Shown piece after piece: positions 10 through 14,476 of a stretch of DNA of 32,000 nt. Below the pieces are notes generated by a model. It was not told where the DNA came from. It saw only the letters and a list, made by a program, of their open reading frames with translations, and did not search any database. Source of the stretch: Desulfocapsa sulfexigens DSM 10523 (GTDB lineage: Bacteria > Desulfobacterota > Desulfobulbia > Desulfobulbales > Desulfocapsaceae); contig NC_020304.1 of NCBI RefSeq assembly GCF_000341395.1, positions 2,910,001 to 2,942,000 on the forward strand, written 5' to 3'. How positions within the stretch are numbered: the stretch's first letter is position 1; the number at the start of each line of letters is the position of its first letter. The translations under genes were made by a program, and so were the position numbers.

Positions 10-1482
10 TTAGACATTGGTACCTCTGGATGTTGAATACTTTCCGGGCAGCATTGTTTCTGCAGGTTCAGAGTGAAGCGGTAAGGTTATGATGAAGTTG
101 GTTCCTGTCCCCTTTGTTGATTCAACCCTGATCGAACCGCCCTGTTTTTTGATAATGCCGTAGACGACAGCCAGGCCAAGTCCGGTACCATTGCCAGCGG
201 TTTTGGTGGTGAAAAATGGATCGAAAACTTTGGCCAGATTTTCCGGATCTATTCCCGTACCGGTATCAGCAACGGTGATAACGGCCTTCTTTTGCTCTTC
301 ATCCTTTTCTGCTTTAATACATACAGTCCCTGGTGGTTCAGGGATGGCCTGGATTGCATTGATTGTAAGATTAAGCAGGGCTTCAACCATTTTTTGCACG
401 TCGACGTAGAGTACTACATCTTCGGGGATATCCGTCTCTATATTGATACCTGTTGGAATTTCACTGGCAACAAGGAGTTTCACTTTGTTTACGATTTTTG
501 CTAGCTGACAGGGTTGAGAGGAAAAAGTATGGGCTCTGGAAAATTCCAACAGACCACGGACAATTTCTCCAGCACGCTGTGTTTCCTGATCGATGGTTTT
601 TAGCATCCTGGCAACAAAAGAATCCTTATCATCACCCATATTCGCAAGAGCCAGCTGGCAGGAGGTGGAAATATTATTGAGGGGATTGTTAATCTGATGG
701 GCCGTGCCAGATGCCAGGGTGCCGATTGATGAAAGTTTTTTGGCCTGGAAAAGCTGCTCCTGCTGCTCTTCCAGGTCAGTGACCATTTTATTAAAGGCAC
801 GCAGGACACTACGAACCTCTCCTTTTTTATCATCTACAGACAGCCGGGAAAAAGTACCATTGGCAATATCAATTGCAGCGTTTTCAACCTTTTTTAATGG
901 CTTAACGATTGAGGTATAGAGGAGGGAAATGGTGAAAACAGACAAAAGTACAAGAAAGAGTACAGTGTTTATAAGTCGAATGGTAAATTTCTCAATAAAG
1001 ACGGTCATCTTATTTTGTTCAAAAAGAACAAGGTCTTCAGTGATGTTGACAAGTTCCTGTCCAAGGCTACGAACTTTTTCCCGTAAGGGACAGACGGTGA
1101 CATCCTGTCCAATGGTGCATTTTCCCTTGAATTCCTTGAATGTCTCTTCATATGCCGTCAGTTTGGCGGTAAGGTCCTGCAGGTGTGTCGGGTGTGGCAT
1201 GATTTGTAAATCATCAATGACCTGGGGGACAAATTGTTGTGCCTCATCTACATATTCAAGAACTTTGTTGAAATCGGTGTTGTCATGACGAATGATGAAG
1301 TTCTTCTCATAGCGTCGTATTTCAAGGCTTATATTGCTGAGATTGCCGGCATGCATAAGCAGGGTGACATCATCATTGAACATGTTGAAATCTTTTAAAA
1401 ACGTGATCCCAACAATGATGTAGAAGAGCAGATGCAGGCAAAAACAGCCAATCATCTTCTGGCGAAGATTTAAAGCGAACAT
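10..1482 (-). CDS. Membrane sensor histidine kinase (2 TM + extracytoplasmic loop, HAMP, HisKA, HATPase_c)
   Basis: 490-aa ORF. Hydrophobic helices lie near residues 10-30 and 170-193, followed by a HAMP-like linker ([18 protein letters not shown]...). H-box [16 protein letters not shown]-terminal G-boxes DTGTGI and GNGTGLGLA. Confidence 0.9.
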
Positions 1483-1645: not shown

Positions 1646-1742
1646 AATGAAAAATAAAATGTGATTTTAATCATTCGCCCATTGTTGCTGATTGCAAAGT
1701 GAGTTTGTTTCATACACCCATTGGGACAGCTTGCCACCAATC

Positions 1743-1791
1743 GTTGCGTAATCGCAACAACATTGCAAGGTGCAACGTTACAATGTGTAAC
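1743..1791. promoter_or_regulatory. Three abutting perfect palindromes (putative activator/operator sites)
   Basis: GTTGCG-TAAT-CGCAAC (1743-1758), TTGCA-AGG-TGCAA (1763-1775) and GTTACA-ATG-TGTAAC (1777-1791), read directly from the sequence. Confidence 0.4.
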
Positions 1792-1886
1792 ATAGCTACT
1801 AAAGAAAAAGCTATATCTCCTTTTACTATATAAATTATTCCTCCAATCTGCTCCAGAAAGGCTCAACTCTTACCTTCGCCTAAGCT

Positions 1887-1915
1887 GTTACATCCTGCAA
1901 CGGACAAGTGTTACA
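1887..1915. promoter_or_regulatory. Direct repeat of TGTTACA flanking TGCAAC (same half-site family as 1743-1791)
   Basis: TGTTACA at 1887-1893, TGCAAC at 1896-1901 and TGTTACA at 1909-1915. Confidence 0.3.
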
Positions 1916-2058
1916 ATCATTTCACAGATCCACCTGAAAAAGGAAACAGATCTTATACGTAAATTTCAGTTCTCCTCGTAAAAAACGGCATACGGGTTGC
2001 ATCGCTGCAGACGACAAACTGTCTGGAATTAACTCATGCTTTTTTTAGGAGGAGAAGG

Positions 2059-2246: not shown

Positions 2247-4052
2247 ATGACTCTCCCTATAATTTTAGTCATGGCTGTTTTGGGCCTGGCAATTTTACTC
2301 TTTATATTTGAATGGGTGCGTGTCGATGTAGTCGGCATCATCATGATGATTATTCTTCCTCTGCTAGGGTTGGTCACCCCTAAAGAGGCCATCAGCGGTC
2401 TTTCAAGTAATGCTGTTGTTTCAATTATTGCCGTTATCATTATCGGTGCCGGCCTGGATAAAACAGGAGCCATGAATTCTCTGGCAAGGATACTGCTTAA
2501 ATTTGCAGGCAAGAGTGAGTCTCGAATTATGATCCTCATTTCTGGTACCGTAGCCTTTATTTCGAGTTTTATGCAGAACATTGGGGCTGCTGCGCTGTTT
2601 ATGCCTGCTGCTAAACGAATCTGTCGTCAGACCAACATTCCTGTTTCACGGATTCTTATGCCCATGGGATTCTGTGCTATTATCGGAGGCTGTATCACCC
2701 TGATCGGATCCAGTCCACTAATTTTAATGAACGATGTAATGAAAATTTCCGATCCTAATGTCGAGGCCTTCGGACTTTTTTCAGTGACTCCTATTGGGCT
2801 CGCTTTAATTGCTGCAGCCCTGATCTATTTTGTCCTTTTTGGTCGGTTTATTCTTCCTGCAGGTGGAGGTAGTGAGGCAGGAAGTGGCCCTATGTCCCAG
2901 GAGCTTGAAAGAACTTATCGAGACATTGGTAATCTTTTCGAGATTCAGATCCCTGAATCTTTTGAAGGGCCAAAAACACTTAAAGAACTTGAGATAAGAC
3001 CGATTTTTTTTACAAGTATTTTAAGTATCGCTTCAAAAGGTGGCGTAATAATATCTACTCCTGATTTTGCTGACACCATCCAGGGTGGGGATACGGTTAT
3101 CGTTGAAGGTCCCTCGGATCTGGTTGCTAAAATGGCCCAATCCTTTAACTGGGTGATCAAAGAAGATCTCGAGGTATTTGCTGAGAGTTTTTCTCCAAAC
3201 AATGCCGGAATTTTGGAAGCAATCATTTCACCCCGTTCCGAGTTGGTCGGTAACACTCTTCGCAGTTTCTCTTTCAGGAAAAAAAATGATGTCACACCAC
3301 TGGCCATATTCAGGAATAATAAAACCTATGTAGGTGATATCTCGACCATGACTTTACGAACCGGTGATGCACTGCTTTTACAGGGGCCCTGGGAAAAGTT
3401 TCATTACCTGAAGGAGCGTACAGATCTGGTCTTTACCGAAGAAGTCCAGGGAGAAATTCTTCGCACTGACAAAGTAAAATTTGCAGTTGGTGGTCTGGTG
3501 CTGGCCCTGACCATGATCCTTGGTTTTCATGTGCAGCTCTCCATTGCTCTTCTGGCAGGAGCGATGTTTATGGTATTAACCAAGGTGCTTTCCATTGATG
3601 AAGCTTACGAGTCTGTGGACTGGATGACTGTTTTCCTTCTTGGTGGTCTTATTCCCCTAGGTATAGCCTTTGAGAAAACAGGTGCCGCCAAGCTTATTGC
3701 CGAGACTATTATGAGTGGCCTGGGGGCAGTGTCTCCACTGATTCTCCTGAGCGTTATTGCGATTCTAACATCTTTTTTCACCCTTGTTGCCTCCAATGTG
3801 GGAGCGACGGTATTAATGGTTCCCCTGGCTATGAATATGGCTGGTGCGGCCGGAGCAGACCCTCGTATTGCAGCTTTAGTTGTGGCGGTTGCCTGTTCAA
3901 ACACCTTTATTCTTCCTACTCATCAGGTTAATGCTTTGATCATGAGACCGGGAGGGTATAAGACGAAAGATTATTTTCGGGCTGGTGCGGGAATGACAGT
4001 CCTTTATCTGGTGGTCATGATGGCTTCAATTGCTCTTTTTTATGGTCTGTAA
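2247..4052 (+). CDS. SLC13/DASS-family anion permease with two central TrkA-C (RCK_C) domains
   Basis: 601-aa ORF with two multi-helix hydrophobic halves. A ~200-aa soluble insert contains two repeats of the TrkA-C type (...GDTVIVEGPSDLV... and ...GDALLLQGPWEKF...). This is the YfbS-like architecture. Confidence 0.88.
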   Translation: MTLPIILVMAVLGLAILLFIFEWVRVDVVGIIMMIILPLLGLVTPKEAISGLSSNAVVSIIAVIIIGAGLDKTGAMNSLARILLKFAGKSESRIMILISGTVAFISSFMQNIGAAALFMPAAKRICRQTNIPVSRILMPMGFCAIIGGCITLIGSSPLILMNDVMKISDPNVEAFGLFSVTPIGLALIAAALIYFVLFGRFILPAGGGSEAGSGPMSQELERTYRDIGNLFEIQIPESFEGPKTLKELEIRPIFFTSILSIASKGGVIISTPDFADTIQGGDTVIVEGPSDLVAKMAQSFNWVIKEDLEVFAESFSPNNAGILEAIISPRSELVGNTLRSFSFRKKNDVTPLAIFRNNKTYVGDISTMTLRTGDALLLQGPWEKFHYLKERTDLVFTEEVQGEILRTDKVKFAVGGLVLALTMILGFHVQLSIALLAGAMFMVLTKVLSIDEAYESVDWMTVFLLGGLIPLGIAFEKTGAAKLIAETIMSGLGAVSPLILLSVIAILTSFFTLVASNVGATVLMVPLAMNMAGAAGADPRIAALVVAVACSNTFILPTHQVNALIMRPGGYKTKDYFRAGAGMTVLYLVVMMASIALFYGL

Positions 4053-4064
4053 ACAAAACAGCAG

Positions 4065-4096
4065 TACCCAGCTATCAGAGGTGTGATAGCTGGGTA
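4065..4096 (+). terminator. Perfect 13-bp stem hairpin between the SLC13 and NhaD genes (weak terminator or processing/stability element)
   Basis: TACCCAGCTATCA-gaggtg-TGATAGCTGGGTA. It is followed by ATTGCTTATC, which is not a strong U tract. Confidence 0.4.
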
Positions 4097-4124
4097 TTGC
4101 TTATCAAATATAAGGATACTTGAA

Positions 4125-5543
4125 ATGAAAACTTTTCTCTTGTGCTGTGTCACCTTACTTGGTGGTGCAGGTTCGGCATTTGCTGCAGGACATGGAGGTG
4201 GGGAGCCAGCGATGGCACTAACAGGCACAGCTTTTGGGTATGCCTCCCTGGCTCTTTTTGTTCTTGCTTATCTTCTTGTTATTTTTGAGGAACAGACTCA
4301 TCTGCGTAAAAGTAAGCCGGTAATGATGGCAGCAGGATTTATCTGGGTGTTGCTTGCCATTTGCTTCCGCGTGGCTGGCATCCCTCCTGAAGAGGCCCAT
4401 CATGCGATTATTAATAATATAACCGAATATGCCGAGCTGCTACTCTTTTTACTGGCGGCCATGACCTATATCAACTCCATGGATGAACGCAATGTCTTCC
4501 AGGCACTCCGTTCCTGGCTTGTTTCCAGGGGTTTTTCTTTACGTATTGTCTTCTGGATTACAGGTTTTCTTGCATTTGTAATATCCCCCATTGCTGACAA
4601 CCTGACCACGGCCCTGCTTATGGGGGCAGTGGTTATGGCGGTTGCTCCGAACAATAAAAAATTTGTCGCCCTTGCCTGTATCAATATCGTGGTTGGTGCC
4701 AATGCAGGTGGGGCTTTTTCCCCCTTTGGCGACATCACCACCCTGATGGTGTGGCAGAAGGGACAGGCTGCTTTTGGTGAGTTTTTTTTCCTCTTTATAC
4801 CGGCCCTAATCAACTGGCTTATCCCGGCGATCATTATGAGTCTCTTCGTTTCTAAAGAAACGCCTGAGGCCTTGAGCGAAAATGTCAGCATGAAATTCGG
4901 TGCCAAGAGAATAATATTTCTTTTTATGATGACAATTGTGACCGCAGTGTCCTTTCATAATTTCCTTGATCTTCCACCTGCAGCGGGCATGATGCTGGGG
5001 CTTTCCTATTTGGGCTTTTTCTCTTACTACATCAAAGTTAAGGAAAAACGTGCCCTTGAGTATGACAAACCTCTGGGTATTTCCACAAGTGGAAAAGATG
5101 ATCCCTTTGATATTTTTCAGAAAGTTGCTCGGGCCGAATGGGATACACTCCTCTTCTTTTACGGTGTTATTCTCTGCGTTGGTGGCCTTTCACAATTTGG
5201 TTACCTGGCTCTCGTTTCCCATCAGATGTACGATGGGCTTGGTGCCACAAACGCCAATATTCTGGTTGGTATTCTCTCGGCAATTGTTGATAATATTCCG
5301 GTTATGTTTGCTGTCTTGACCATGGATCCAGCCATGTCACTTGGCCAGTGGTTGCTGGTCACTCTAACTGCTGGAGTTGGTGGAAGTCTTCTTTCCATCG
5401 GTTCTGCAGCCGGTGTGGCCTTAATGGGAACCGCCCGCGGAACCTATACCTTTGGTGCCCATTTGAAATGGACACCGATTGTAGCTCTTGGCTATGCCGC
5501 AAGTATTTATGCACATATGTTCATCAATAATCGTCTTTTTTAA
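4125..5543 (+). CDS. nhaD: NhaD-family Na+/H+ antiporter (ArsB/NhaD permease superfamily)
   Basis: Polytopic membrane ORF with NhaD-like blocks (AAMTYINSMDERNVFQALRSWLV, ISPIADNLTTALLMGAVV, DNIPVMFAVL). I prefer the ATG at 4125 (MKTFLLCCVTLLGGAGSAFA, signal-like) over the track start at 4083, which lies inside the upstream hairpin. Confidence 0.82.
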   Translation: MKTFLLCCVTLLGGAGSAFAAGHGGGEPAMALTGTAFGYASLALFVLAYLLVIFEEQTHLRKSKPVMMAAGFIWVLLAICFRVAGIPPEEAHHAIINNITEYAELLLFLLAAMTYINSMDERNVFQALRSWLVSRGFSLRIVFWITGFLAFVISPIADNLTTALLMGAVVMAVAPNNKKFVALACINIVVGANAGGAFSPFGDITTLMVWQKGQAAFGEFFFLFIPALINWLIPAIIMSLFVSKETPEALSENVSMKFGAKRIIFLFMMTIVTAVSFHNFLDLPPAAGMMLGLSYLGFFSYYIKVKEKRALEYDKPLGISTSGKDDPFDIFQKVARAEWDTLLFFYGVILCVGGLSQFGYLALVSHQMYDGLGATNANILVGILSAIVDNIPVMFAVLTMDPAMSLGQWLLVTLTAGVGGSLLSIGSAAGVALMGTARGTYTFGAHLKWTPIVALGYAASIYAHMFINNRLF

Positions 5544-5554
5544 TGAGGGAAGTC

Positions 5555-5896
5555 ATGGAATACTGTATACCCGAAGAGGTGATGGGACAACTGTATATAA
5601 ATCAGTTTGCAACGGAAGATGAAGCTATGGACCGGAGGATTCTCTCCGTTGTCCGTGCCGCCAGCCAACCGGTAAAAACGAAAAAAAAACTGCCCGATCC
5701 AATCACCCATCTCAAACAGGTAATGGAAGAGAGGGGGCTTCGTAACAGGGACTTGAAAATTTACATAGGCAGTTCAGGAAATGTCAGTGCGATACTGAAG
5801 CGTAGACAGGCTTTGTCTTTGCGGATGATTCGTAACCTCAATAAGTACCTCAATATTCCTGCTGAGATACTAATTCAACCCTATGACTGTCGTTGA
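5555..5896 (+). CDS. HigA-like (COG5499-type) XRE helix-turn-helix protein with no partner toxin
   Basis: C-terminal HTH: LKQVMEERGLRNRDLKIYIGSSGNVSAILKRRQALSLRMIRNLNKYLNIPAEILIQ. GAGGGA lies 4 nt before the ATG at 5555. An alternative ATG at 5543 overlaps the nhaD stop (TAATG). Confidence 0.65.
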   Translation: MEYCIPEEVMGQLYINQFATEDEAMDRRILSVVRAASQPVKTKKKLPDPITHLKQVMEERGLRNRDLKIYIGSSGNVSAILKRRQALSLRMIRNLNKYLNIPAEILIQPYDCR

Positions 5897-5962: not shown

Positions 5963-7993
5963 ATGAGCTTTTTTTCAAAGAAAGAAACTGAAACCAAGTT
6001 GTCGGGGGCTGAGAGGCCGGTCAGTTCCCGGCAGCTTGATGATTTGAAAACCAGAGTGGCTAATACCGATTTGCCGCTCTCGGTTGCCCGTCAAGTTACG
6101 AGCGAAATGGAACACCTGGGGAAAATTGACCCATTTGTTGCCGAATTTTCCATAGGAGTCACCTATGTCGAATTACTGCTCTCTCTACCGTGGTTCAAGG
6201 AAACTAAAGATGATCTTGATCTCAACCGCGCTGAGACTATCATGGCCTCACACCATTACGGGCTCGACGCGGTCAAGACACGGATTCTGGAATACCTTGC
6301 TGCAAAGAGTTTGAAGAATCATCAGAAGTCCAGGATACTCATTGTAGATGACGAAGAAGTTGCCCGCAATAATCTTCATCTCTATTTTACAGGTATGGGC
6401 CATACCGTGCGGGTTGCTGTCAATGGTGTGGATGCCCTGCAGCAGGTAGAAGAGAACGATCATTTTGACGTGATGATCACAGATCTGAAAATGGATAAAA
6501 TGGATGGACTTACCCTGATTGACAGGATTAGTAAGGCCTCTCCTGAGACCAGTGTGATTATGGTTACCGGATACGCAACGGTTGCTAATGCTGTCGATGC
6601 CATGCGCAAAGGTGCTACCCATTATTTATCAAAGCCGGTTCAGCTAGACAAACTGAAAGAGACTGTTGAGGAGGTACTGCAGAAACAGAAGAAATTGCAG
6701 ATCAGCCAGGGGCCGGTGCTTTGTTTTGCAGGTCCCCCTGGTACTGGGAAAACATCCATAGGACAGGCAGTGGCTACTTCCCTTGGGCGAAAATTTATTC
6801 GGATATCCATGGGAGGCTTACGTGATGAGGCTGAAATTCGAGGCCATCGGAGAACCTATGTGGGTGCCATGCCAGGGCGTATCATCAGTGAAATCAAACG
6901 GGCTGGAGTGAATAACCCCTGTATCATGCTTGATGAGATTGACAAGATCGGCCAGGATTTTCGCGGTGATCCTGCATCTGTTCTTTTGGAAGTACTCGAT
7001 CCGGAACAGAATGGGAGTTTTAGTGATCAGTACCTTGATGTTCCCTTTGACCTTTCCGGCGTCCTCTTTATCGCCACCGCAAATGACATTAGTAAGTTGC
7101 CAGGTCCTCTGCTGGATCGACTGGAGGTGATCGATTTCTCCAGCTATTCTTTAGAGGAAAAACTGGTTATTGCCAGGAAATATCTTCTCCCCAAGCAGGT
7201 AGCTGCAAACGGCCTTGGTGAGAGTAATCCACAGATCAGTGACAAGGCCTTTGAAAAACTTATTATTGAATATACACAGGAGTCTGGAGTACGGGGCCTC
7301 ACCCGGGAAATTGGAACAATCTGTCGTAAACTCGCCCTTCAGGTTATTCAGAAAAATGCAACTGTCTTGCCCGAAATAGATGAGAGTTCGATCACGTCCC
7401 TGCTCGGGCCGCGTAAGTATCGGCAGGAAGCCGCTGATGGTGAAGACAGGGTGGGGGTGGTAACCAGTTTGGTCTGGACTCGTTTTGGTGGTGGAATTAT
7501 GTTTATTGAAGCTTTGCGGATGCAGGGCAACACCAATCTTATACTTACCGGATCACTCGGGGAAGTGTTACGTGAATCTGCTCAAACGGCTCTTAGTTAC
7601 ATAAGGAGTAATGCCAAGCAACTGGGTATTGATCCTGACTTCTATGAACATTCTGACATTCATGTTCATCTTCCTGCTGGTGCAGTTTCAAAAGACGGCC
7701 CTTCAGCAGGTTTGGCCATTGGTATTTCTCTTATCTCCCTTCTTACTGGGCGTCCGGTATGTCGTACGGTCTCAATCACTGGTGAGATGACCTTGACTGG
7801 TTATGTCCTGCCAGTGGGTGGAATTCGTGAGAAACTTCTGGCTGCTCTTCGTTCCGGTTGCACCAAGGTTGTTCTGCCTGCAGAAAATCGTGAGGATGTA
7901 GCCTCATTAAGTGATGATGTTACCGGACACCTGGAACTGGTTTATGTTGAAACATTGGACGATGCAATTCCACATCTGCTTTGTGCTCAGTAA
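5963..7993 (+). CDS. LonA-type ATP-dependent protease lacking the N-terminal LON domain, with an inserted receiver (REC) domain
   Basis: Residues 1-120 resemble the Lon pre-AAA helical region (HHYGLDAVKTRILEYLAAK). Walker A is GPPGTGKTS, followed by RGHRRTYVGAMPGRII, DEIDK and GDPASVLLEVLDPEQN. The protease domain has KDGPSAGLA (catalytic Ser) and GGIREKLLAA (Lys). Confidence 0.9.
   Translation: MSFFSKKETETKLSGAERPVSSRQLDDLKTRVANTDLPLSVARQVTSEMEHLGKIDPFVAEFSIGVTYVELLLSLPWFKETKDDLDLNRAETIMASHHYGLDAVKTRILEYLAAKSLKNHQKSRILIVDDEEVARNNLHLYFTGMGHTVRVAVNGVDALQQVEENDHFDVMITDLKMDKMDGLTLIDRISKASPETSVIMVTGYATVANAVDAMRKGATHYLSKPVQLDKLKETVEEVLQKQKKLQISQGPVLCFAGPPGTGKTSIGQAVATSLGRKFIRISMGGLRDEAEIRGHRRTYVGAMPGRIISEIKRAGVNNPCIMLDEIDKIGQDFRGDPASVLLEVLDPEQNGSFSDQYLDVPFDLSGVLFIATANDISKLPGPLLDRLEVIDFSSYSLEEKLVIARKYLLPKQVAANGLGESNPQISDKAFEKLIIEYTQESGVRGLTREIGTICRKLALQVIQKNATVLPEIDESSITSLLGPRKYRQEAADGEDRVGVVTSLVWTRFGGGIMFIEALRMQGNTNLILTGSLGEVLRESAQTALSYIRSNAKQLGIDPDFYEHSDIHVHLPAGAVSKDGPSAGLAIGISLISLLTGRPVCRTVSITGEMTLTGYVLPVGGIREKLLAALRSGCTKVVLPAENREDVASLSDDVTGHLELVYVETLDDAIPHLLCAQ
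6332..6682 (+). other. Receiver domain inserted within the Lon ORF (residues ~124-240)
   Basis: RILIVDDEE (acidic pair), DVMITDLKMDKMDG (phospho-acceptor Asp ~174), VIMVTGY (Thr) and YLSKP (Lys). All canonical REC signature positions are present. Confidence 0.85.
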
Positions 7994-8027: not shown

Positions 8028-8067
8028 GGCTCCACGAAAGACTCTCTTCTTTCATGGAGCCTTTTTT
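8028..8067 (+). terminator. Rho-independent terminator after the Lon gene
   Basis: GGCTCCACGAAAG / CTTTCATGGAGCC stem (13 bp, 1 mismatch) with an 8-nt loop, followed by TTTTTT. Confidence 0.65.
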
Positions 8068-8249
8068 ATAGAAACTCCCTTTGATTGCTATTGTTGTATT
8101 CTGTTACGCGGTTTCATTCTGCAACAGTATTTCCCCAGTAAACAGCTTGTTTTTGTTTAATTGTTGTTATTTCGGTTGATTACCTGTGTCTTCCTTTTTT
8201 TGTTCCCTTCAGTCAGACGTTTTTCCATCAGCGTAAGTGAAAAAGAGTG

Positions 8250-8262
8250 TTGCAGGCTGCAA
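8250..8262. promoter_or_regulatory. TTGCA-N3-TGCAA palindrome (putative enhancer site) ~100 bp upstream of the sigma54 promoter
   Basis: TTGCAGGCTGCAA has the same TTGCA-N3-TGCAA arrangement as 1763-1775. Related half-sites are TGTTACG (8102-8108), TGCAACA (8120-8126) and TGTAACA (8275-8281). Confidence 0.4.
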
Positions 8263-8357
8263 TGATCCGAGGAATGTAACATTTTCTCAAAACGTAGAAT
8301 CCCCATGGGAGCAGTGTAATGTGCTGACAATACAGGATAAAAGAAAGTTGTTCAATC

Positions 8358-8373
8358 TGGCACACCATGTGCA
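8358..8373 (+). promoter_or_regulatory. Sigma54 -24/-12 promoter
   Basis: TGGCACACCATGTGCA: TGGCAC is a perfect -24 element, and GG/GC are spaced by exactly 10 nt. It lies ~60 nt upstream of the SD-preceded ATG at 8436. Confidence 0.55.
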
Positions 8374-8435: not shown

Positions 8436-8990
8436 ATGGGATTCACTGACTGGTTTGGATTAGCTATAAAGAAAAATAAAGACGTTGACGTACAAAAGAT
8501 CAAAAAACAGAGCGTGGATATGGGCGCTATGGCATCCGGCAGCCCATCTGTGGCAGCCGAGGCCCTGGGCAGAATGGTTGACCAGAACAACGCTCCGACA
8601 AAAGTTCTTATGGTGCAGGATGGGGAATATATGCAACAGGTAACAGACTATGCTCTCAAAATGGCACAACGTCTCGACTGTGAAATCATTGCGCTTGATG
8701 TCACAGACAAACCGTTGCAGTTCTCAGGTGAACGAAAAGCAAGGGAAAGTGAACGATTTATTGAGATGGCGGCCAAAAATGCAGAACAGTTCATCAACCA
8801 GGCTACTGCTCAGGGGATTAAAGTTGCTCATATCATGGATATCGCCGCGCCCGAAGAAGTGGTTGCCAGAGTAAGTGCTGCCGATGCAGGAATTCGCTAT
8901 GTTCTGAGTAAACCTGAAGGGGAAAATGCTACTGCTGACCAGCAGCGCCCCCATGTACCAGTTTTTGATCTTCACTGTTCACGTTTATAA
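8436..8990 (+). CDS. Hypothetical protein with a universal-stress-protein-like core
   Basis: AAGGAG lies 6 nt before the ATG at 8436. The track start at 8367 overlaps the promoter and has no SD. The core KVLMVQDGEYMQQVTDYALKMAQRLDCEIIALDV resembles the first beta-alpha-beta of USP/AANH folds. No G-x2-G-x9-G(S/T) ATP motif is seen. Confidence 0.55.
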   Translation: MGFTDWFGLAIKKNKDVDVQKIKKQSVDMGAMASGSPSVAAEALGRMVDQNNAPTKVLMVQDGEYMQQVTDYALKMAQRLDCEIIALDVTDKPLQFSGERKARESERFIEMAAKNAEQFINQATAQGIKVAHIMDIAAPEEVVARVSAADAGIRYVLSKPEGENATADQQRPHVPVFDLHCSRL

Positions 8991-9020
8991 TTTTTGGTCA
9001 ATAATAAGAGGAGTAATATT

Positions 9021-9296
9021 ATGGAACCCCTAACACTTTTTGCCGCAACCGTTGGACTTATTGGAAGTATCCACCTTGTATCCACCACCTTTGAACGCTT
9101 TGGCAAAGGACGATATGACAAGGGGAATCAGCAGGGCAAAAGAAATGACTGGTACTGTTTTTTTCAGCCATCTGATCTTCTGGGTGAAGACTGGAACAAA
9201 ACTGAAAATAGAAATGATCGGCCAAGCCTTGGTAACTCTGAACGTCTTGATCAGGCACGTAGGCAACAGGCAAACCGCCCACGCATGCAGGTCTGA
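9021..9296 (+). CDS. Small hypothetical protein: N-terminal TM helix followed by a charged, low-complexity tail
   Basis: AAGAGGAG lies upstream of the ATG at 9021 (MEPLTLFAATVGLIGSIHLV...). It sits 30 nt after the previous gene and is followed by a strong terminator. Confidence 0.55.
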   Translation: MEPLTLFAATVGLIGSIHLVSTTFERFGKGRYDKGNQQGKRNDWYCFFQPSDLLGEDWNKTENRNDRPSLGNSERLDQARRQQANRPRMQV

Positions 9297-12439: not shown

Positions 12440-13327
12440 TCAGGCAGTAATGGTTTGCGTGAATGTTTGGGTTAAATCAATAAAGGCATCAAGGTCAAGT
12501 GTCTCTGCCCGTGTTCCAGGTGAAAGTCCAGATTTCTTGATACAGTCTCTGGTGAGCTCTTTCTCTTTCTTTTTATCACCGTTTGCAATTTCCTTGAAAA
12601 AACCACCACCAGTGAGAGTGTTGAGCAGAGTTTTTCTCCTCTGGCTGAAGGCTGCACGGACAATCTTTTGAAAAAGAAGTCTGTCATAGATTCTGCTGCC
12701 GATGGCCTCTGTGGCGGAAAAATCAATAAAAACTACTATGGAGTCAATCTTGGGTCGGGGGTGAAACTCGGCAGGTTTCAAGGTTAGTAGTGATTTTACC
12801 GTGGCGCAGCTTTTTAGTAACACCGTGGGGATACCATATTGTTTCGTTCCAGGTTCGGCAGTGAGACGGTCTGCCACCTCTTTTTGGAGCATTATGGTGG
12901 CCCAGTCCATTTTTTCCTGATTCGCTATAAGCGTAAATAAAAAAGGATTTGAAATGGAGTAGGGGAGGTTGGCCATAATTTTCAGGGGGCCTTTGCTGAG
13001 TTTGTAGAGTTCCTCAAAATCAGCCTTGAGGATATCCTGATGGATCAAGGTGACATTGGCGGGAAGATCTTCCTTTTCCTGATGAAATCGAACAATACCA
13101 CTATCCACTTCCAGGCCGATTACCTGCGAGGCACGGTTAGCAATAGGCTGGGTGAGTGCGCCAAGGCCAACTCCCACCTCAATTATAATGTCACTCTCGG
13201 TGATTGGACCACAGCGGGCAACGGCTTCAGCGGTAGCCCTGTTGACAAGAAAATTTTGCCCAAGTTGTTTTTTTGGGGCAAGATTTTCTTCTCTGAGTGA
13301 TTTTCTGGTTTCACCGTATCGGGTCAT
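12440..13327 (-). CDS. rsmA: 16S rRNA (adenine1518/1519-N6)-dimethyltransferase
   Basis: KKQLGQNFLVN N-terminal signature, SAM motif EVGVGLGALT, and NLPYSISNP catalytic motif. Confidence 0.93.
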   Translation of the reverse strand: MTRYGETRKSLREENLAPKKQLGQNFLVNRATAEAVARCGPITESDIIIEVGVGLGALTQPIANRASQVIGLEVDSGIVRFHQEKEDLPANVTLIHQDILKADFEELYKLSKGPLKIMANLPYSISNPFLFTLIANQEKMDWATIMLQKEVADRLTAEPGTKQYGIPTVLLKSCATVKSLLTLKPAEFHPRPKIDSIVVFIDFSATEAIGSRIYDRLLFQKIVRAAFSQRRKTLLNTLTGGGFFKEIANGDKKKEKELTRDCIKKSGLSPGTRAETLDLDAFIDLTQTFTQTITA

Positions 13328-13862
13328 GAATTTCCTTTTTCTGTTTAATCGTTTTCTTTTTGGCCCGGAGGATATGTCTCTCTCTGCGTTTTTCTCTGAT
13401 TTTGAGAAAGAGGCGCAGGGTGAAAAAATACCAGAAAACCGCAGTTGGAAGAGCTAAGATCATTCCGCCACTCAACATGACAATGATAATTTCAGTCCCC
13501 TGATTGGCAAGCATGGTAACGGATTGTTTGAAACCGTGCTCTGAAATAATAACGTTGAGAATAGTATGAATTGTTTCCCAGTTGACTTTATAGGGTGTAA
13601 TAAAGTTTCCAATAACCATGCTCAGGTAATATATCGGAATGTAGGTGAAGGGGTTGCTGATTACAAGACTGGAAAAAAGACCAGCCATGGTTGAGGTTCT
13701 AGTCATCACACAGACTGCTATGATTCCAATGGTGTGGAACGGCATCACCGGCATTGTCCCGATTAACGCACCAATGCAGGCTCCCCAGGCGATATCCTTC
13801 GGGGCACCCTTGATCCTCACAAATTTGAGGTAATAAAATTTTTTCAGCCGCGTAAAGTTCAT
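13311..13862 (-). CDS. DUF2062-family membrane protein (paralog A)
   Basis: KFVRIKGAPKDIAWGACIGALIGTMPVMPFHT...NPFTYIPIYY pattern. The 3' end overlaps the rsmA start by 17 nt. Confidence 0.8.
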   Translation of the reverse strand: MNFTRLKKFYYLKFVRIKGAPKDIAWGACIGALIGTMPVMPFHTIGIIAVCVMTRTSTMAGLFSSLVISNPFTYIPIYYLSMVIGNFITPYKVNWETIHTILNVIISEHGFKQSVTMLANQGTEIIIVMLSGGMILALPTAVFWYFFTLRLFLKIREKRRERHILRAKKKTIKQKKEIHDPIR

Positions 13863-13969
13863 ATTATATATTAGCAGAATTTGTCTGGCAATCTAACCAC
13901 CTGATCAAGAAAAATACAATATAAGTTGAATTTGAAAGCTGAAAATACTTTCAGGCTTGTTGTGTGCCC

Positions 13970-14476
13970 TTACCTGTAGTTGAGAATATGTTTTTTACGT
14001 TTCTTTTCGCGGATTTTCAGAAAGAGCTGTAATGACATATAATAACCGACAACTGTGAACGGCAGAGCCAAAATCGACCCGCCGACAAGTAAAACAATAA
14101 CTGCTTCATATCCGAGTCCGGCAAGGGCATGCAGAGATTCCATAATCCCGGGTTTAGCAACTATAATGTCCAGCACAGCTTTCATCCGTTCCCAGGAAAA
14201 TTCATAGGGGGTTGCTGCATTGCCGATTACTATTGAAAAGTAATACTGGGGGATATAGGTGAGTGGGTTACAGACAATCACGGAGGCTAGTATAGCAGCA
14301 ATTGGTGAGGTTCTGGTGAGAAAGGTGACCAGCAGGTTAAGGACAGTATGAAAGGGAATTATGGGTGTTATTCCAAGAAATGTACCAACGGCTGTTCCTC
14401 TGGCAAGGTATTTGGGATCACCTTGAAGGCGGGTGAATTTCAGGTAATAGTAGCGGAATGTGCGTTTGGGGTTCAT
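13970..14476 (-). CDS. DUF2062-family membrane protein (paralog B)
   Basis: KFTRLQGDPKYLARGTAVGTFLGITPIIPFHT...NPLTYIPQYY. It is collinear with paralog A along its whole length and both end in LFLKIREK+basic tail. Confidence 0.8.
   Translation of the reverse strand: MNPKRTFRYYYLKFTRLQGDPKYLARGTAVGTFLGITPIIPFHTVLNLLVTFLTRTSPIAAILASVIVCNPLTYIPQYYFSIVIGNAATPYEFSWERMKAVLDIIVAKPGIMESLHALAGLGYEAVIVLLVGGSILALPFTVVGYYMSLQLFLKIREKKRKKHILNYR

Follow-up and report, generated by a model that had tools for sequence, protein, structure and literature searches.

The REC-Lon locus

The window, i.e. the whole 32,000-nucleotide stretch of Desulfocapsa sulfexigens DSM 10523 DNA that was analysed, encodes a Lon-type protease with a built-in receiver (REC) domain, hereafter REC-Lon, whose gene follows two permease genes and a short open reading frame and precedes a Usp-like gene, whilst a histidine kinase gene lies on the opposite strand (Table 1). 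In a homologue search the REC-Lon protein was 100% identical to the annotated ‘ATP-dependent protease La’ of this strain (P0001). The two permeases and the 117-aa ORF represent protein clusters (c3, c6 and c9) whose order is kept in related loci, and these genes (2247..5896) are probably co-transcribed with REC-Lon. The hairpin that follows the REC-Lon stop codon was missed by a simple terminator scan because its loop is long, and its predicted RNA fold has an energy of -25.2 kcal/mol (z -4.5), with none of 200 shuffled sequences folding as well.

Table 1. Features of the REC-Lon locus; coordinates are positions in the window.
Feature	Coordinates	Strand	Basis and remarks
Histidine kinase (HAMP-HisKA-HATPase_c), candidate cognate kinase	10..1482	-	Pfam; kinase cluster c2
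Four GTTRC-N5-GYAAC palindromes (at 1684, 1762, 1777, 1887)	1684..1901	+	Pattern search; resemble the DVU3305 motif
Sigma54-promoter-like element CGGCAT-N5-TTGCA	1986..2001	+	Upstream of the transporter/REC-Lon gene string
CitMHS-type anion permeases	2247..4052, 4083..5543	+	Pfam
117-aa ORF	5543..5896	+	Unrelated; ends 66 bp before REC-Lon start
REC-Lon CDS	5963..7993	+	ORF list; 676 aa plus stop, ATG start
N-terminal tail, aa 1-22	5963..6028	+	Conserved M-x-F-F-x-K, then variable disordered linker
Helical bundle and AAA+ helix alpha0, aa 23-119	6029..6319	+	phmmer to 6u5z, 3m6a; homologous to E. coli Lon 252-345
Receiver domain, aa 124-247	6332..6703	+	PF00072; AF2 (beta/alpha)5 topology; long alpha5 runs straight into AAA+ beta1
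Codon of D174, predicted phospho-acceptor	6482..6484	+	Invariant in 66/66 sequences
AAA+ large subdomain, aa 250-393	6710..7141	+	Walker A K263, pore-loop Y299, Walker B D324/E325, sensor-1 N374, Arg finger R386
AAA+ lid (small) subdomain, aa 394-470	7142..7372	+	Pfam Lon_lid; sensor-2 R444
S16 Lon protease domain, aa 471-676	7373..7990	+	Ser581-Lys624 dyad, codons 7703-7705 and 7832-7834
Terminator-like hairpin and U6 run	8028..8067	+	After REC-Lon stop codon
Second regulatory region: palindromes (8111, 8249) and sigma54-like promoter TGGCAC-N5-GTGCA (8358-8373)	8111..8373	+
Usp-like gene, cluster c1	8436..8990	+	Weak Pfam Usp matches; ATG 8436 chosen by homology (MGFTDWF...)

REC-Lon is an N-truncated LonA with an inserted receiver domain

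From its N-terminus REC-Lon consists of a short helical segment, a complete REC, a LonA AAA+ module, a lid and an S16 protease. Pfam Response_reg (PF00072) matched residues 125-235 (E-value 3.8e-28; 98 bits, cutoff 30) over 110 of its 111 profile positions, AAA matched residues 253-390, Lon_lid 415-465 and Lon_C 472-673 (E-value 1.6e-75), whilst the PUA-like LON_substr_bdg profile (PF02190) gave no match even at E<=1, a combination anticipated, the lid aside, in an original prediction made from the nucleotide letters. The NCBIfam model TIGR00763 ‘endopeptidase La’ scored 699.6 bits (cutoff 608), with the REC splitting the match into two stretches, and the stricter PRK10787 model scored 566.6, below its cutoff of 891. 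Because PF02190 is unmatched and the alignment to E. coli Lon begins at about residue 252, REC-Lon is, on profile and alignment evidence, an N-truncated LonA derivative and not a canonical LonA.

When REC-Lon was compared with the PDB using phmmer, residues 26-119 aligned to E. coli Lon residues 252-345 and residues 244-669 to residues 343-767, the start of the protein corresponding to about residue 227 of E. coli Lon. Since these flanking segments align contiguously to E. coli Lon, the REC (approximately residues 120-243, about 124 aa) on this alignment interrupts the alpha0/beta1 loop cleanly, at E. coli Lon residue ~345; the inserted segment, originally put at ~117 aa, measures ~124-128 aa. 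The HHYGL and RILEYLAA motifs both lie in the segment preceding it (aa 23-119), and of the Lon N region the three-helix bundle has been kept, so that the earlier suggestion of phosphorylation gating ‘instead of’ N-domain substrate recognition was too strong.

The AlphaFold2 (AF2) model gives the segment before the REC five helices (23-34, 39-54, 64-74, 87-97 and 102-119), shows secondary structure elements b1-a1 through b5-a5 of the receiver fold, and has a pLDDT of only ~35 over residues 1-21. In this model alpha0 leads into REC beta1, and REC alpha5 (228-247) into AAA+ beta1, through linkers of ~4 residues. Superposed on 3m6a it gave a TM score of 0.95 and an rmsd of 2.4 A; as a monomer it is silent on the position of the REC within the hexamer. 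Profile, PDB and AlphaFold results thus all bear out the initial reading of a LonA that lacks the globular N domain and carries a REC just ahead of the Walker A strand, with its catalytic sites intact, and we regard this identity and architecture as very nearly certain.

REC-Lon shares with the canonical LonA proteins of E. coli, B. subtilis and Meiothermus (6u5z, 3m6a, 7fd4) the helical bundle, AAA+ module, lid and S16 protease, with ~50% identity over the AAA+-protease region, but in place of their globular N-terminal substrate-binding domain (~225 aa) it has a 124-aa receiver and the M-x-F-F-x-K tail. A second likeness is to the sigma54 activators of the NtrC family (REC-AAA+-HTH), among them the neighbouring regulator family, NtrC1 and DctD: there too a long alpha5 connects a receiver of the same subfamily to the AAA+ ring ATPase that directly follows it. 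Unlike in these activators, the AAA+ of REC-Lon is of the Lon type, its output is proteolysis, and the receiver is an internal insertion and not N-terminal; the Pfam signal for the sigma54-interaction AAA+ domain (PF00158, GAFTGA loop) was faint or absent and no DNA-binding HTH was found. The resemblance is functional, i.e. a REC followed by an AAA+ module, and not one of membership.

REC-Lon proteins form a conserved family of single origin

In an alignment of 66 REC-Lon sequences (50-100% identity) the residues of receiver phospho-chemistry (D129, D130, D174, T202 and K224) are each invariant in all 66, as are K263, Y299, D324/E325, N374, R386, R444, S581 and K624, so that every receiver, AAA+ and Ser-Lys motif named at the outset is both present and fixed across the family. 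Both REC junctions are invariant in length, at 29 aa over residues 100-128 and 33 aa over residues 224-256. The extreme N-terminal M-x-F-F-x-K is conserved family-wide, which supports the ATG at 5963 as the start codon, and F4 was invariant in a larger alignment of 130 sequences.

These data bear on whether the architecture could be an artefact or a product of decay, i.e. a chimeric assembly, a frameshifted canonical lon with its N domain encoded upstream, or a pseudogenised truncated Lon, for which the old annotation of the D. vulgaris Hildenborough (DvH) homologue as a ‘truncation’ might speak. The identical protein is annotated in a complete isolate genome, and at least 360 protein clusters (90% identity), from independent assemblies and several of them from complete isolate genomes, have the same length and domain set, which excludes a chimera. 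An in-frame upstream N domain is excluded too, as the 66 bp before the start and the unrelated ORF beyond them leave no space for one. Together with the invariant catalytic residues, the conserved N-terminal motif and the monophyly of the family, these observations refute an artefact or decay, whose likelihood we consider negligible. REC-Lon is best explained, from its sequence conservation, as a functional member of a conserved response-regulator Lon family, the DVU3303 family.

In neighbour-joining trees of the AAA+-protease region alone the REC-Lon family was monophyletic within LonA (30 of 30 bootstraps), from which we conclude that it has a single evolutionary origin. Homologues from Desulfovibrionaceae with readable sequence were 50-56% identical to REC-Lon. 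A set of long, high-scoring proteins from a representative search (889-3865 aa, P0122-P0141) was considered as possible multi-receiver Lons and rejected: those scanned (P0122-P0127 and P0129) have two to three tandem AAA+ modules and no REC and are thus unrelated in architecture.

The best NCBIfam matches of the REC were to the NtrC-family regulators AtoC, ZraR and GlrR, with weaker similarity to RssB- and CpdR-like receivers. Its identity to the receiver that the partner sigma54 regulator described below carries is ~44%, against 26% for an unrelated NarL-type REC in the window. Same-locus pairs of REC-Lon and regulator receivers (44.5%) are hardly more alike than cross-locus pairs (43.2%) and hence give no sign of co-evolution with a shared kinase; as far as such identities can tell, they reflect common ancestry and not a shared kinase.

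DVU3303 of Desulfovibrio vulgaris as a probable, already described family member

In 2011 the D. vulgaris protein DVU3303 was reported to be a response regulator ‘containing a lon protease’ for whose activity phosphorylation may be needed, to belong to a three-component system and to be upregulated under stress (Rajeev et al.; PMC3333781). The same authors report that associated Lon-RR orthologues occur in most members of a genome set to which Thermodesulfovibrio, Thioalkalivibrio and Dechloromonas belong. Its kinase DVU3304 and sigma54 regulator DVU3305 are linked to it genetically, with cofitness values >0.9 (Trotter et al. 2023; PMC10102598), though in DvH, where DVU3303 heads the DVU3303-3305 operon, polar effects could account for part of the cofitness. 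We infer that REC-Lon and DVU3303 are orthologous from the published description, DVU3303's TIGR name (‘ATP-dependent protease La, truncation’, an old annotation), synteny and a shared regulator motif; our homologue searches returned only REC-Lon proteins, none of them named D. vulgaris Hildenborough.

The original prediction knew of no characterised example of this architecture. That holds for biochemistry and structure, where our literature search found no characterised REC-Lon, but both the architecture and the phosphorylation hypothesis are already published for DVU3303 (PMC3333781), with genetics added since (PMC10102598). Beyond what is published, our analysis gives the exact topology of the insertion, shows that junction lengths are fixed and active sites invariant, traces the family to one evolutionary origin, and documents the conserved motif at the N-terminus together with the kinase, regulator and binding-site context that is conserved family-wide.

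The locus resembles the DvH system in linking a histidine kinase, and probably also a response regulator of the sigma54 type, to a protease gene with Usp-type, membrane and anion-transporter neighbours, and in carrying receiver and N-truncated Lon on one polypeptide, DVU3303 being compared here by its description. It differs in arrangement, since DVU3303-3305 form one operon in DvH whereas here the kinase gene, and judging from related loci that of the regulator as well, runs divergently and the two permease genes precede REC-Lon, and in its transporters, which are of the CitMHS type here and of the TauE type in Desulfovibrio-like loci.

Candidate two-component partners and regulatory elements

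In order to assess the gene context we used 40 well-flanked loci, with at least 6 kb on each side of REC-Lon. A kinase of cluster c2, to which the window kinase belongs, lies beside REC-Lon in 32 of these 40, and a REC-Sigma54_activat-HTH_8 regulator is found nearby in 31. In the closest related loci the regulator adjoins the kinase, a position that falls outside the window; because close relatives such as L004 have it there, we infer that the partner sigma54 NtrC-type regulator is encoded just left of the window. The Usp-like cluster c1 is the most conserved non-signalling neighbour (26/40). By this comparison of neighbourhoods, the REC-Lon gene is within a conserved module of histidine kinase, sigma54 NtrC-type regulator, Usp-like proteins and anion transporters.

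The palindromes of Table 1 resemble the binding motif of DVU3305, GTTGC-N4/5-GCAAC (PMC3333781, supplement). In DvH the targets of this regulator are DVU3299-3302. A pattern search gave seven matches in the window against 2.0 expected, six of the seven in two intergenic regions, and of 64 related loci 48 have a GTTRC-N5-GYAAC palindrome upstream of REC-Lon or of the operon that contains it. Sigma54-like matches were not enriched across the window (24 against 17.7 in shuffled sequences), and the two candidate sigma54-like promoters are credible solely by their position and conservation, the element at 1986..2001 being identical or near-identical in related Desulfocapsaceae and Desulfobulbaceae loci. 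With a strict sigma54 pattern, promoters were found in loci of these two families and almost none in Desulfovibrio-type loci, despite the presence there of the regulator palindromes.

A possible phosphorylation switch on Lon proteolysis

Lon is usually viewed as a quality-control protease whose N domain gives it selectivity, and its regulation is known to act via substrates, adaptors and small molecules. A family that has exchanged the globular N domain for a receiver built rigidly into its ATPase would bring Lon proteolysis under direct two-component control. Gating of REC-Lon activity by a histidine kinase, as first proposed from the sequence, is plausible and is strengthened by the conserved neighbouring kinase; both the role of this kinase (10..1482, minus strand) as phospho-donor and an effect of phosphorylation on activity are putative. 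That phosphorylation of the REC switches REC-Lon at all is a proposition towards which we lean slightly.

In the scheme that we propose, a two-component system branches and REC-Lon would be its second output, in that the neighbouring kinase would phosphorylate both the sigma54 NtrC-type regulator and Asp174 of REC-Lon. The phosphorylated regulator would activate the transporter/REC-Lon operon and the Usp-like gene, and the phosphorylated REC would switch the protease, most likely via ring assembly or via the nucleotide site and subunit interface by the insertion point. In NtrC-family activators the receiver controls assembly of the AAA+ ring, and the switch in REC-Lon would resemble this control. 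A fuller version, in which the REC controls hexamer assembly or firing as in NtrC1 and DctD, the M-x-F-F-x-K tail acts as a pseudo-degron or latch, and the protease removes an inhibitor of the sigma54 regulator or a Usp-like client, is offered tentatively and is more doubtful. If this fuller version is true, a single kinase would set off transcription and targeted proteolysis at once, as a coherent feed-forward switch, and Lon would be regulated on a principle new to it.

For the study of receiver switching in AAA+ rings other than transcription activators, the family is a compact natural system. It is large (at least 360 clusters), old and monophyletic, and goes with an anion-transporter/Usp stress regulon in organisms that reduce sulfate or disproportionate sulfur. 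The phosphorylation-switch hypothesis is directly testable since a genetically tractable member, DVU3303, exists in DvH.

Phosphorylation could instead alter what is degraded, with a constitutively active ATPase and protease to which the REC is fused, in place of the lost N domain, as a phosphorylation-dependent dock for a specific substrate or adaptor. RssB and CpdR are free-standing response-regulator adaptors for ClpXP, and REC-Lon is like the RssB (ClpXP/sigmaS) and CpdR systems in coupling two-component phosphorylation to AAA+ proteolysis; unlike these separate proteins, which act on ClpXP in trans, its receiver is covalently built into the Lon subunit. As the globular substrate-binding N domain is absent, another surface of REC-Lon must select substrates, and the REC adjoins the helical bundle that has been kept, on the side of LonA where substrates enter; the receiver does show the RssB-/CpdR-like similarity noted above, and the near-constant Usp-like neighbour could be a client. 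However, the near-linkerless junctions, of strictly fixed length and in a loop next to the nucleotide site, suggest a REC coupled mechanically to the ATPase and not a freely exposed docking module, and the closest relatives of the REC are NtrC-family receivers, which regulate AAA+ assembly. We consider a built-in adaptor unlikely.

Less probable again, and in our view quite improbable, is that REC-Lon mainly tunes the kinase-to-regulator pathway, either competing for phosphoryl groups as a phosphate sink or shutting the response off through degradation of the kinase or of the sigma54 regulator. A branched system in which a single kinase family goes with two receivers sharing an origin would accommodate this role, and, given the upstream palindromes (48/64 loci), the regulator is predicted to target REC-Lon itself, a wiring that suits a feedback loop. 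A negative-feedback protease would nevertheless predict opposite phenotypes, whereas the DvH protease, kinase and regulator mutants share a fitness pattern (cofitness >0.9; PMC10102598), unless this is polar. A pure sink, for its part, would have no need for the ATPase and protease catalytic residues that are invariant across the family.

Architecture and conservation of a receiver-containing LonA protease

The LonA homologue REC-Lon had been predicted to be without the N-terminal substrate-binding domain and to carry a receiver directly before the AAA+ module, an architecture borne out by Pfam, NCBIfam and phmmer searches. The Pfam scan matched the expected Response_reg, AAA and Lon_C domains, with no match to the LON substrate-binding domain even at E ≤ 1, whilst the NCBIfam endopeptidase La model (TIGR00763) scored 699.6 against a curated cutoff of 608 and aligned in two pieces with the receiver between them. 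The top NCBIfam models over the receiver were the NtrC-family regulators AtoC, ZraR and GlrR. Using phmmer against PDB sequences, residues 26-119 aligned to 252-345 of E. coli Lon and residues 244-669 to 343-767, placing the N-terminus at about E. coli residue 227. The helical bundle and alpha0 helix (HHYGL...RILEYLAA) are kept, and the insert lies cleanly within the loop between alpha0 and the beta1/Walker A strand of Lon, measuring about 124-128 aa rather than the ~117 aa of the original prediction.

Features of REC-Lon and its surroundings in the window
Feature	Position	Strand	Remarks
Kinase gene	10..1482	-	cluster c2
Palindrome region, first	1684-1901		intergenic
Sigma54-like promoter	1986-2001		CGGCAT-N5-TTGCA; after first palindrome region, upstream of permease/permease/small-ORF/REC-Lon string
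117-aa ORF	5543-5896	+	cluster c9; immediately upstream of REC-Lon
REC-Lon ORF	5963..7993	+	676 aa
N-terminal tail	5963-6028; aa 1-22		
Receiver domain	aa 125-235		Pfam, E 3.8e-28
AAA domain	aa 253-390		Pfam
Lon lid	aa 415-465		Pfam
S16 Lon protease domain	aa 472-673		Pfam
Hairpin with U6 tail	8028-8067		
Palindrome region, second	8111-8263		intergenic
Sigma54-like promoter	8358-8373		TGGCAC-N5-GTGCA; after second palindrome region, upstream of Usp-like gene
Degenerate Usp-like gene	8436-8990	+	weak PF00582 matches
~92-100-aa protein gene	8994-9296	+	N-terminal hydrophobic segment
Two DUF2062 genes	13311-14476	-	adjoining paralogues (183, 168 aa) near rRNA adenine dimethylase and TsaD genes

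In a 66-sequence alignment (50-100% identity) the receiver residues D129, D130, D174, T202 and K224 were invariant, as were Walker A K263, pore-loop Y299, Walker B D324/E325, sensor-1 N374, the arginine finger R386, sensor-2 R444 and the protease dyad S581/K624, and both insert junctions had a strictly fixed length (66/66). An AlphaFold2 model (pLDDT 82.4, pTM 0.72) has alpha0 (102-119) running straight into receiver beta1 (124-128), and a long receiver alpha5 (228-247) straight into AAA+ beta1 (252-256). The model superposed on canonical LonA with TM 0.95 (3m6a) and 0.91 (6u5z); the receiver insert was absent from every solved structure matched in PDB searches.

At the extreme N-terminus an M-x-F-F-x-K/R motif, with F4 invariant, is kept family-wide among the REC-Lon loci, which supports the assigned start codon. 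A variable-length, low-complexity linker follows, and residues 1-21 are disordered in the model. We know of no published mention of this aromatic tail; held on a flexible tether over the Lon pore, it could serve as an intrinsic pseudo-degron or latch. An in-frame N domain further upstream has no room, only 66 bp separating the preceding ORF from the start.

Distribution and origin of the family

REC-Lon is 100% identical to the 'ATP-dependent protease La' of Desulfocapsa sulfexigens DSM 10523. Searches seeded with this protein, and with one member each from the Desulfobulbus clade and Desulfocurvus, gave at least 120 clusters apiece at 90% identity (at least 360 altogether), every one with PF00072 plus Lon domains and, a few truncated entries aside, 640-730 aa long; Desulfobulbus propionicus DSM 2032 and Humidesulfovibrio mexicanus are among the isolates included. 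An assembly or gene-call artefact was rejected given the identical isolate protein, the shared architecture of these clusters, the conserved start and the lack of upstream space for an N domain. A search across species-representative genomes gave 139 relatives, from which 80 loci were kept, 65 with a full-length REC-Lon. These fall in the Desulfocapsaceae, Desulfobulbaceae, Desulfovibrionaceae (Desulfovibrio, Solidesulfovibrio, Desulfocurvus, Humidesulfovibrio), Syntrophobacteraceae, Desulfobaccales, Desulfomonile and Desulfatitalea, with a few MAGs labelled as Acidobacteriota. Clustering at 50% reduced the REC-Lons to fragments and, in essence, a single full-length representative (P0121). Using the AAA+-protease region alone, they were recovered as monophyletic (30/30 NJ bootstraps) when compared with the 70 canonical Lon representatives nearest to them; N-domain deletion and receiver insertion therefore arose once and were then maintained.

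The representative search also returned, amongst P0122-P0141, many proteins of 889-3865 aa ending in a Lon module. In those scanned (P0122-P0127, P0129), Lon-type AAA+ and lid modules come two or three in tandem ahead of one S16 protease domain; a pair of protease domains is present in P0126 (710 aa). This unusual multi-AAA+ architecture, unrelated to REC-Lon, could be real or an assembly or gene-call artefact. In P0241 (674 aa), a further Lon AAA+-protease, a nucleotidyl-transferase domain (PF00483) at the N-terminus takes the place of the Lon N domain, which makes this another case of LonA N-domain replacement.

Genomic neighbourhood and predicted regulation

Clustering of neighbour proteins across the 80 loci identified a HAMP-HisKA-HATPase kinase (c2), a REC-Sigma54_activat-HTH_8 regulator (c0) and a Usp-like protein (c1), present in 32, 31 and 26, respectively, of the 40 loci flanked by 6 kb or more at each side, together with tandem-Usp proteins, anion permeases (TauE/SafE or CitMHS) and small membrane proteins. 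The window kinase is 82% identical to that of related locus L002, and other neighbours belong to c3, c6, c9, c1 and c4. In the closest related loci the regulator lies directly beyond the kinase, and that of D. sulfexigens would be expected just left of the window. The REC-Lon receiver shares ~44% identity with that of the partner regulator, compared with 26% for another, NarL-type receiver in the window, indicating common NtrC-family ancestry. At five Desulfocapsaceae/Desulfobulbaceae loci (L009-L012, L014), which have no CitMHS permeases, two kinase/sigma54-regulator pairs of these families stand in tandem upstream of REC-Lon.

The 117-aa ORF, whose start codon shares one base with the preceding permease stop, gave no significant Pfam match; its position is kept in 13-15 loci, all Desulfocapsaceae/Desulfobulbaceae, and visual inspection suggests an XRE-type helix-turn-helix in its C-terminal half. 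Downstream, the Usp-like and ~92-100-aa protein pair recurs in most Desulfobulbales loci. The listed Usp-like start (8367) is probably too early, since homologues begin MGF(T/I)DW, corresponding to ATG 8436.

The palindrome bound by DVU3305, the sigma54 regulator of Desulfovibrio vulgaris Hildenborough (DvH), is GTTGC-N4/5-GCAAC (PMC3333781 supplement). GTTRC-N5-GYAAC occurs seven times in the window against 2.0 expected window-wide, six of these in the two tabulated intergenic regions, and a palindrome precedes REC-Lon or its operon in 48/64 related loci. The promoter following the first region is near-identical in related Desulfocapsaceae loci. REC-Lon is thus a predicted target of its partner regulator, the permease/REC-Lon string and the Usp-like gene forming a putative sigma54 regulon; RNA folding predicts that a stable hairpin ends the REC-Lon transcription unit.

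Relationship to DVU3303 and proposed mechanism

According to the original prediction, no characterised example was known, which is overstated. It holds for biochemistry and structure, literature and PDB searches finding no such study of the REC-Lon type, but the architecture and phosphorylation hypothesis are already in print for DVU3303, the DvH Lon-RR (TIGR name 'ATP-dependent protease La, truncation'). Rajeev et al. (PMC3333781) described stress induction in this system and regulator orthologues in several Desulfovibrio species, Desulfomicrobium, Desulfohalobium, Thermodesulfovibrio, Thioalkalivibrio and Dechloromonas, mostly associated with a Lon-RR orthologue. The DVU3305 regulon includes DVU3303-3305 (Kazakov et al. 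2015, PMC4641369), whilst DVU3303 and DVU3305 show pairwise cofitness >0.9, with a phenotype tied to the anion transporter DVU3299 (Trotter et al. 2023, PMC10102598). Matched by description, TIGR name, synteny and regulator motif, REC-Lon is the probable D. sulfexigens orthologue within this noted, biochemically unexplored kind.

Phosphorylation gating is a reasonable predicted function. On the reading with most support, one kinase would feed two receivers that share an origin, with the sigma54 regulator switching on a regulon that includes REC-Lon and D174 phosphorylation switching the protease. The alpha0/beta1 loop of AAA+ proteins generally lies beside the adenine pocket and subunit interface. 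Together with this position, the NtrC-type receiver and its fixed-length, nearly linkerless junctions make control of ring assembly or of ATPase firing, to which we give slightly better than even chances, preferable to a receiver serving purely in substrate docking, which appears unlikely, and to a feedback device or phosphate sink, which we consider quite improbable. Unless due to polarity, the DvH cofitness argues for a protease working in the same sense as kinase and regulator. If true, a phosphorylation-switched Lon would be a principle new for Lon and directly testable, though not a new discovery.

Residues 60-159 of the window kinase, the candidate partner of REC-Lon, are periplasmic and matched the helical bimodular (HBM) sensor domain below the cutoff (E 1.1e-5); taken with the anion-permease regulon and the chlorate phenotype in DvH, this hints that the signal may be an anion or organic acid. 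As speculation, the near-constant Usp-like neighbour is a candidate REC-Lon client.
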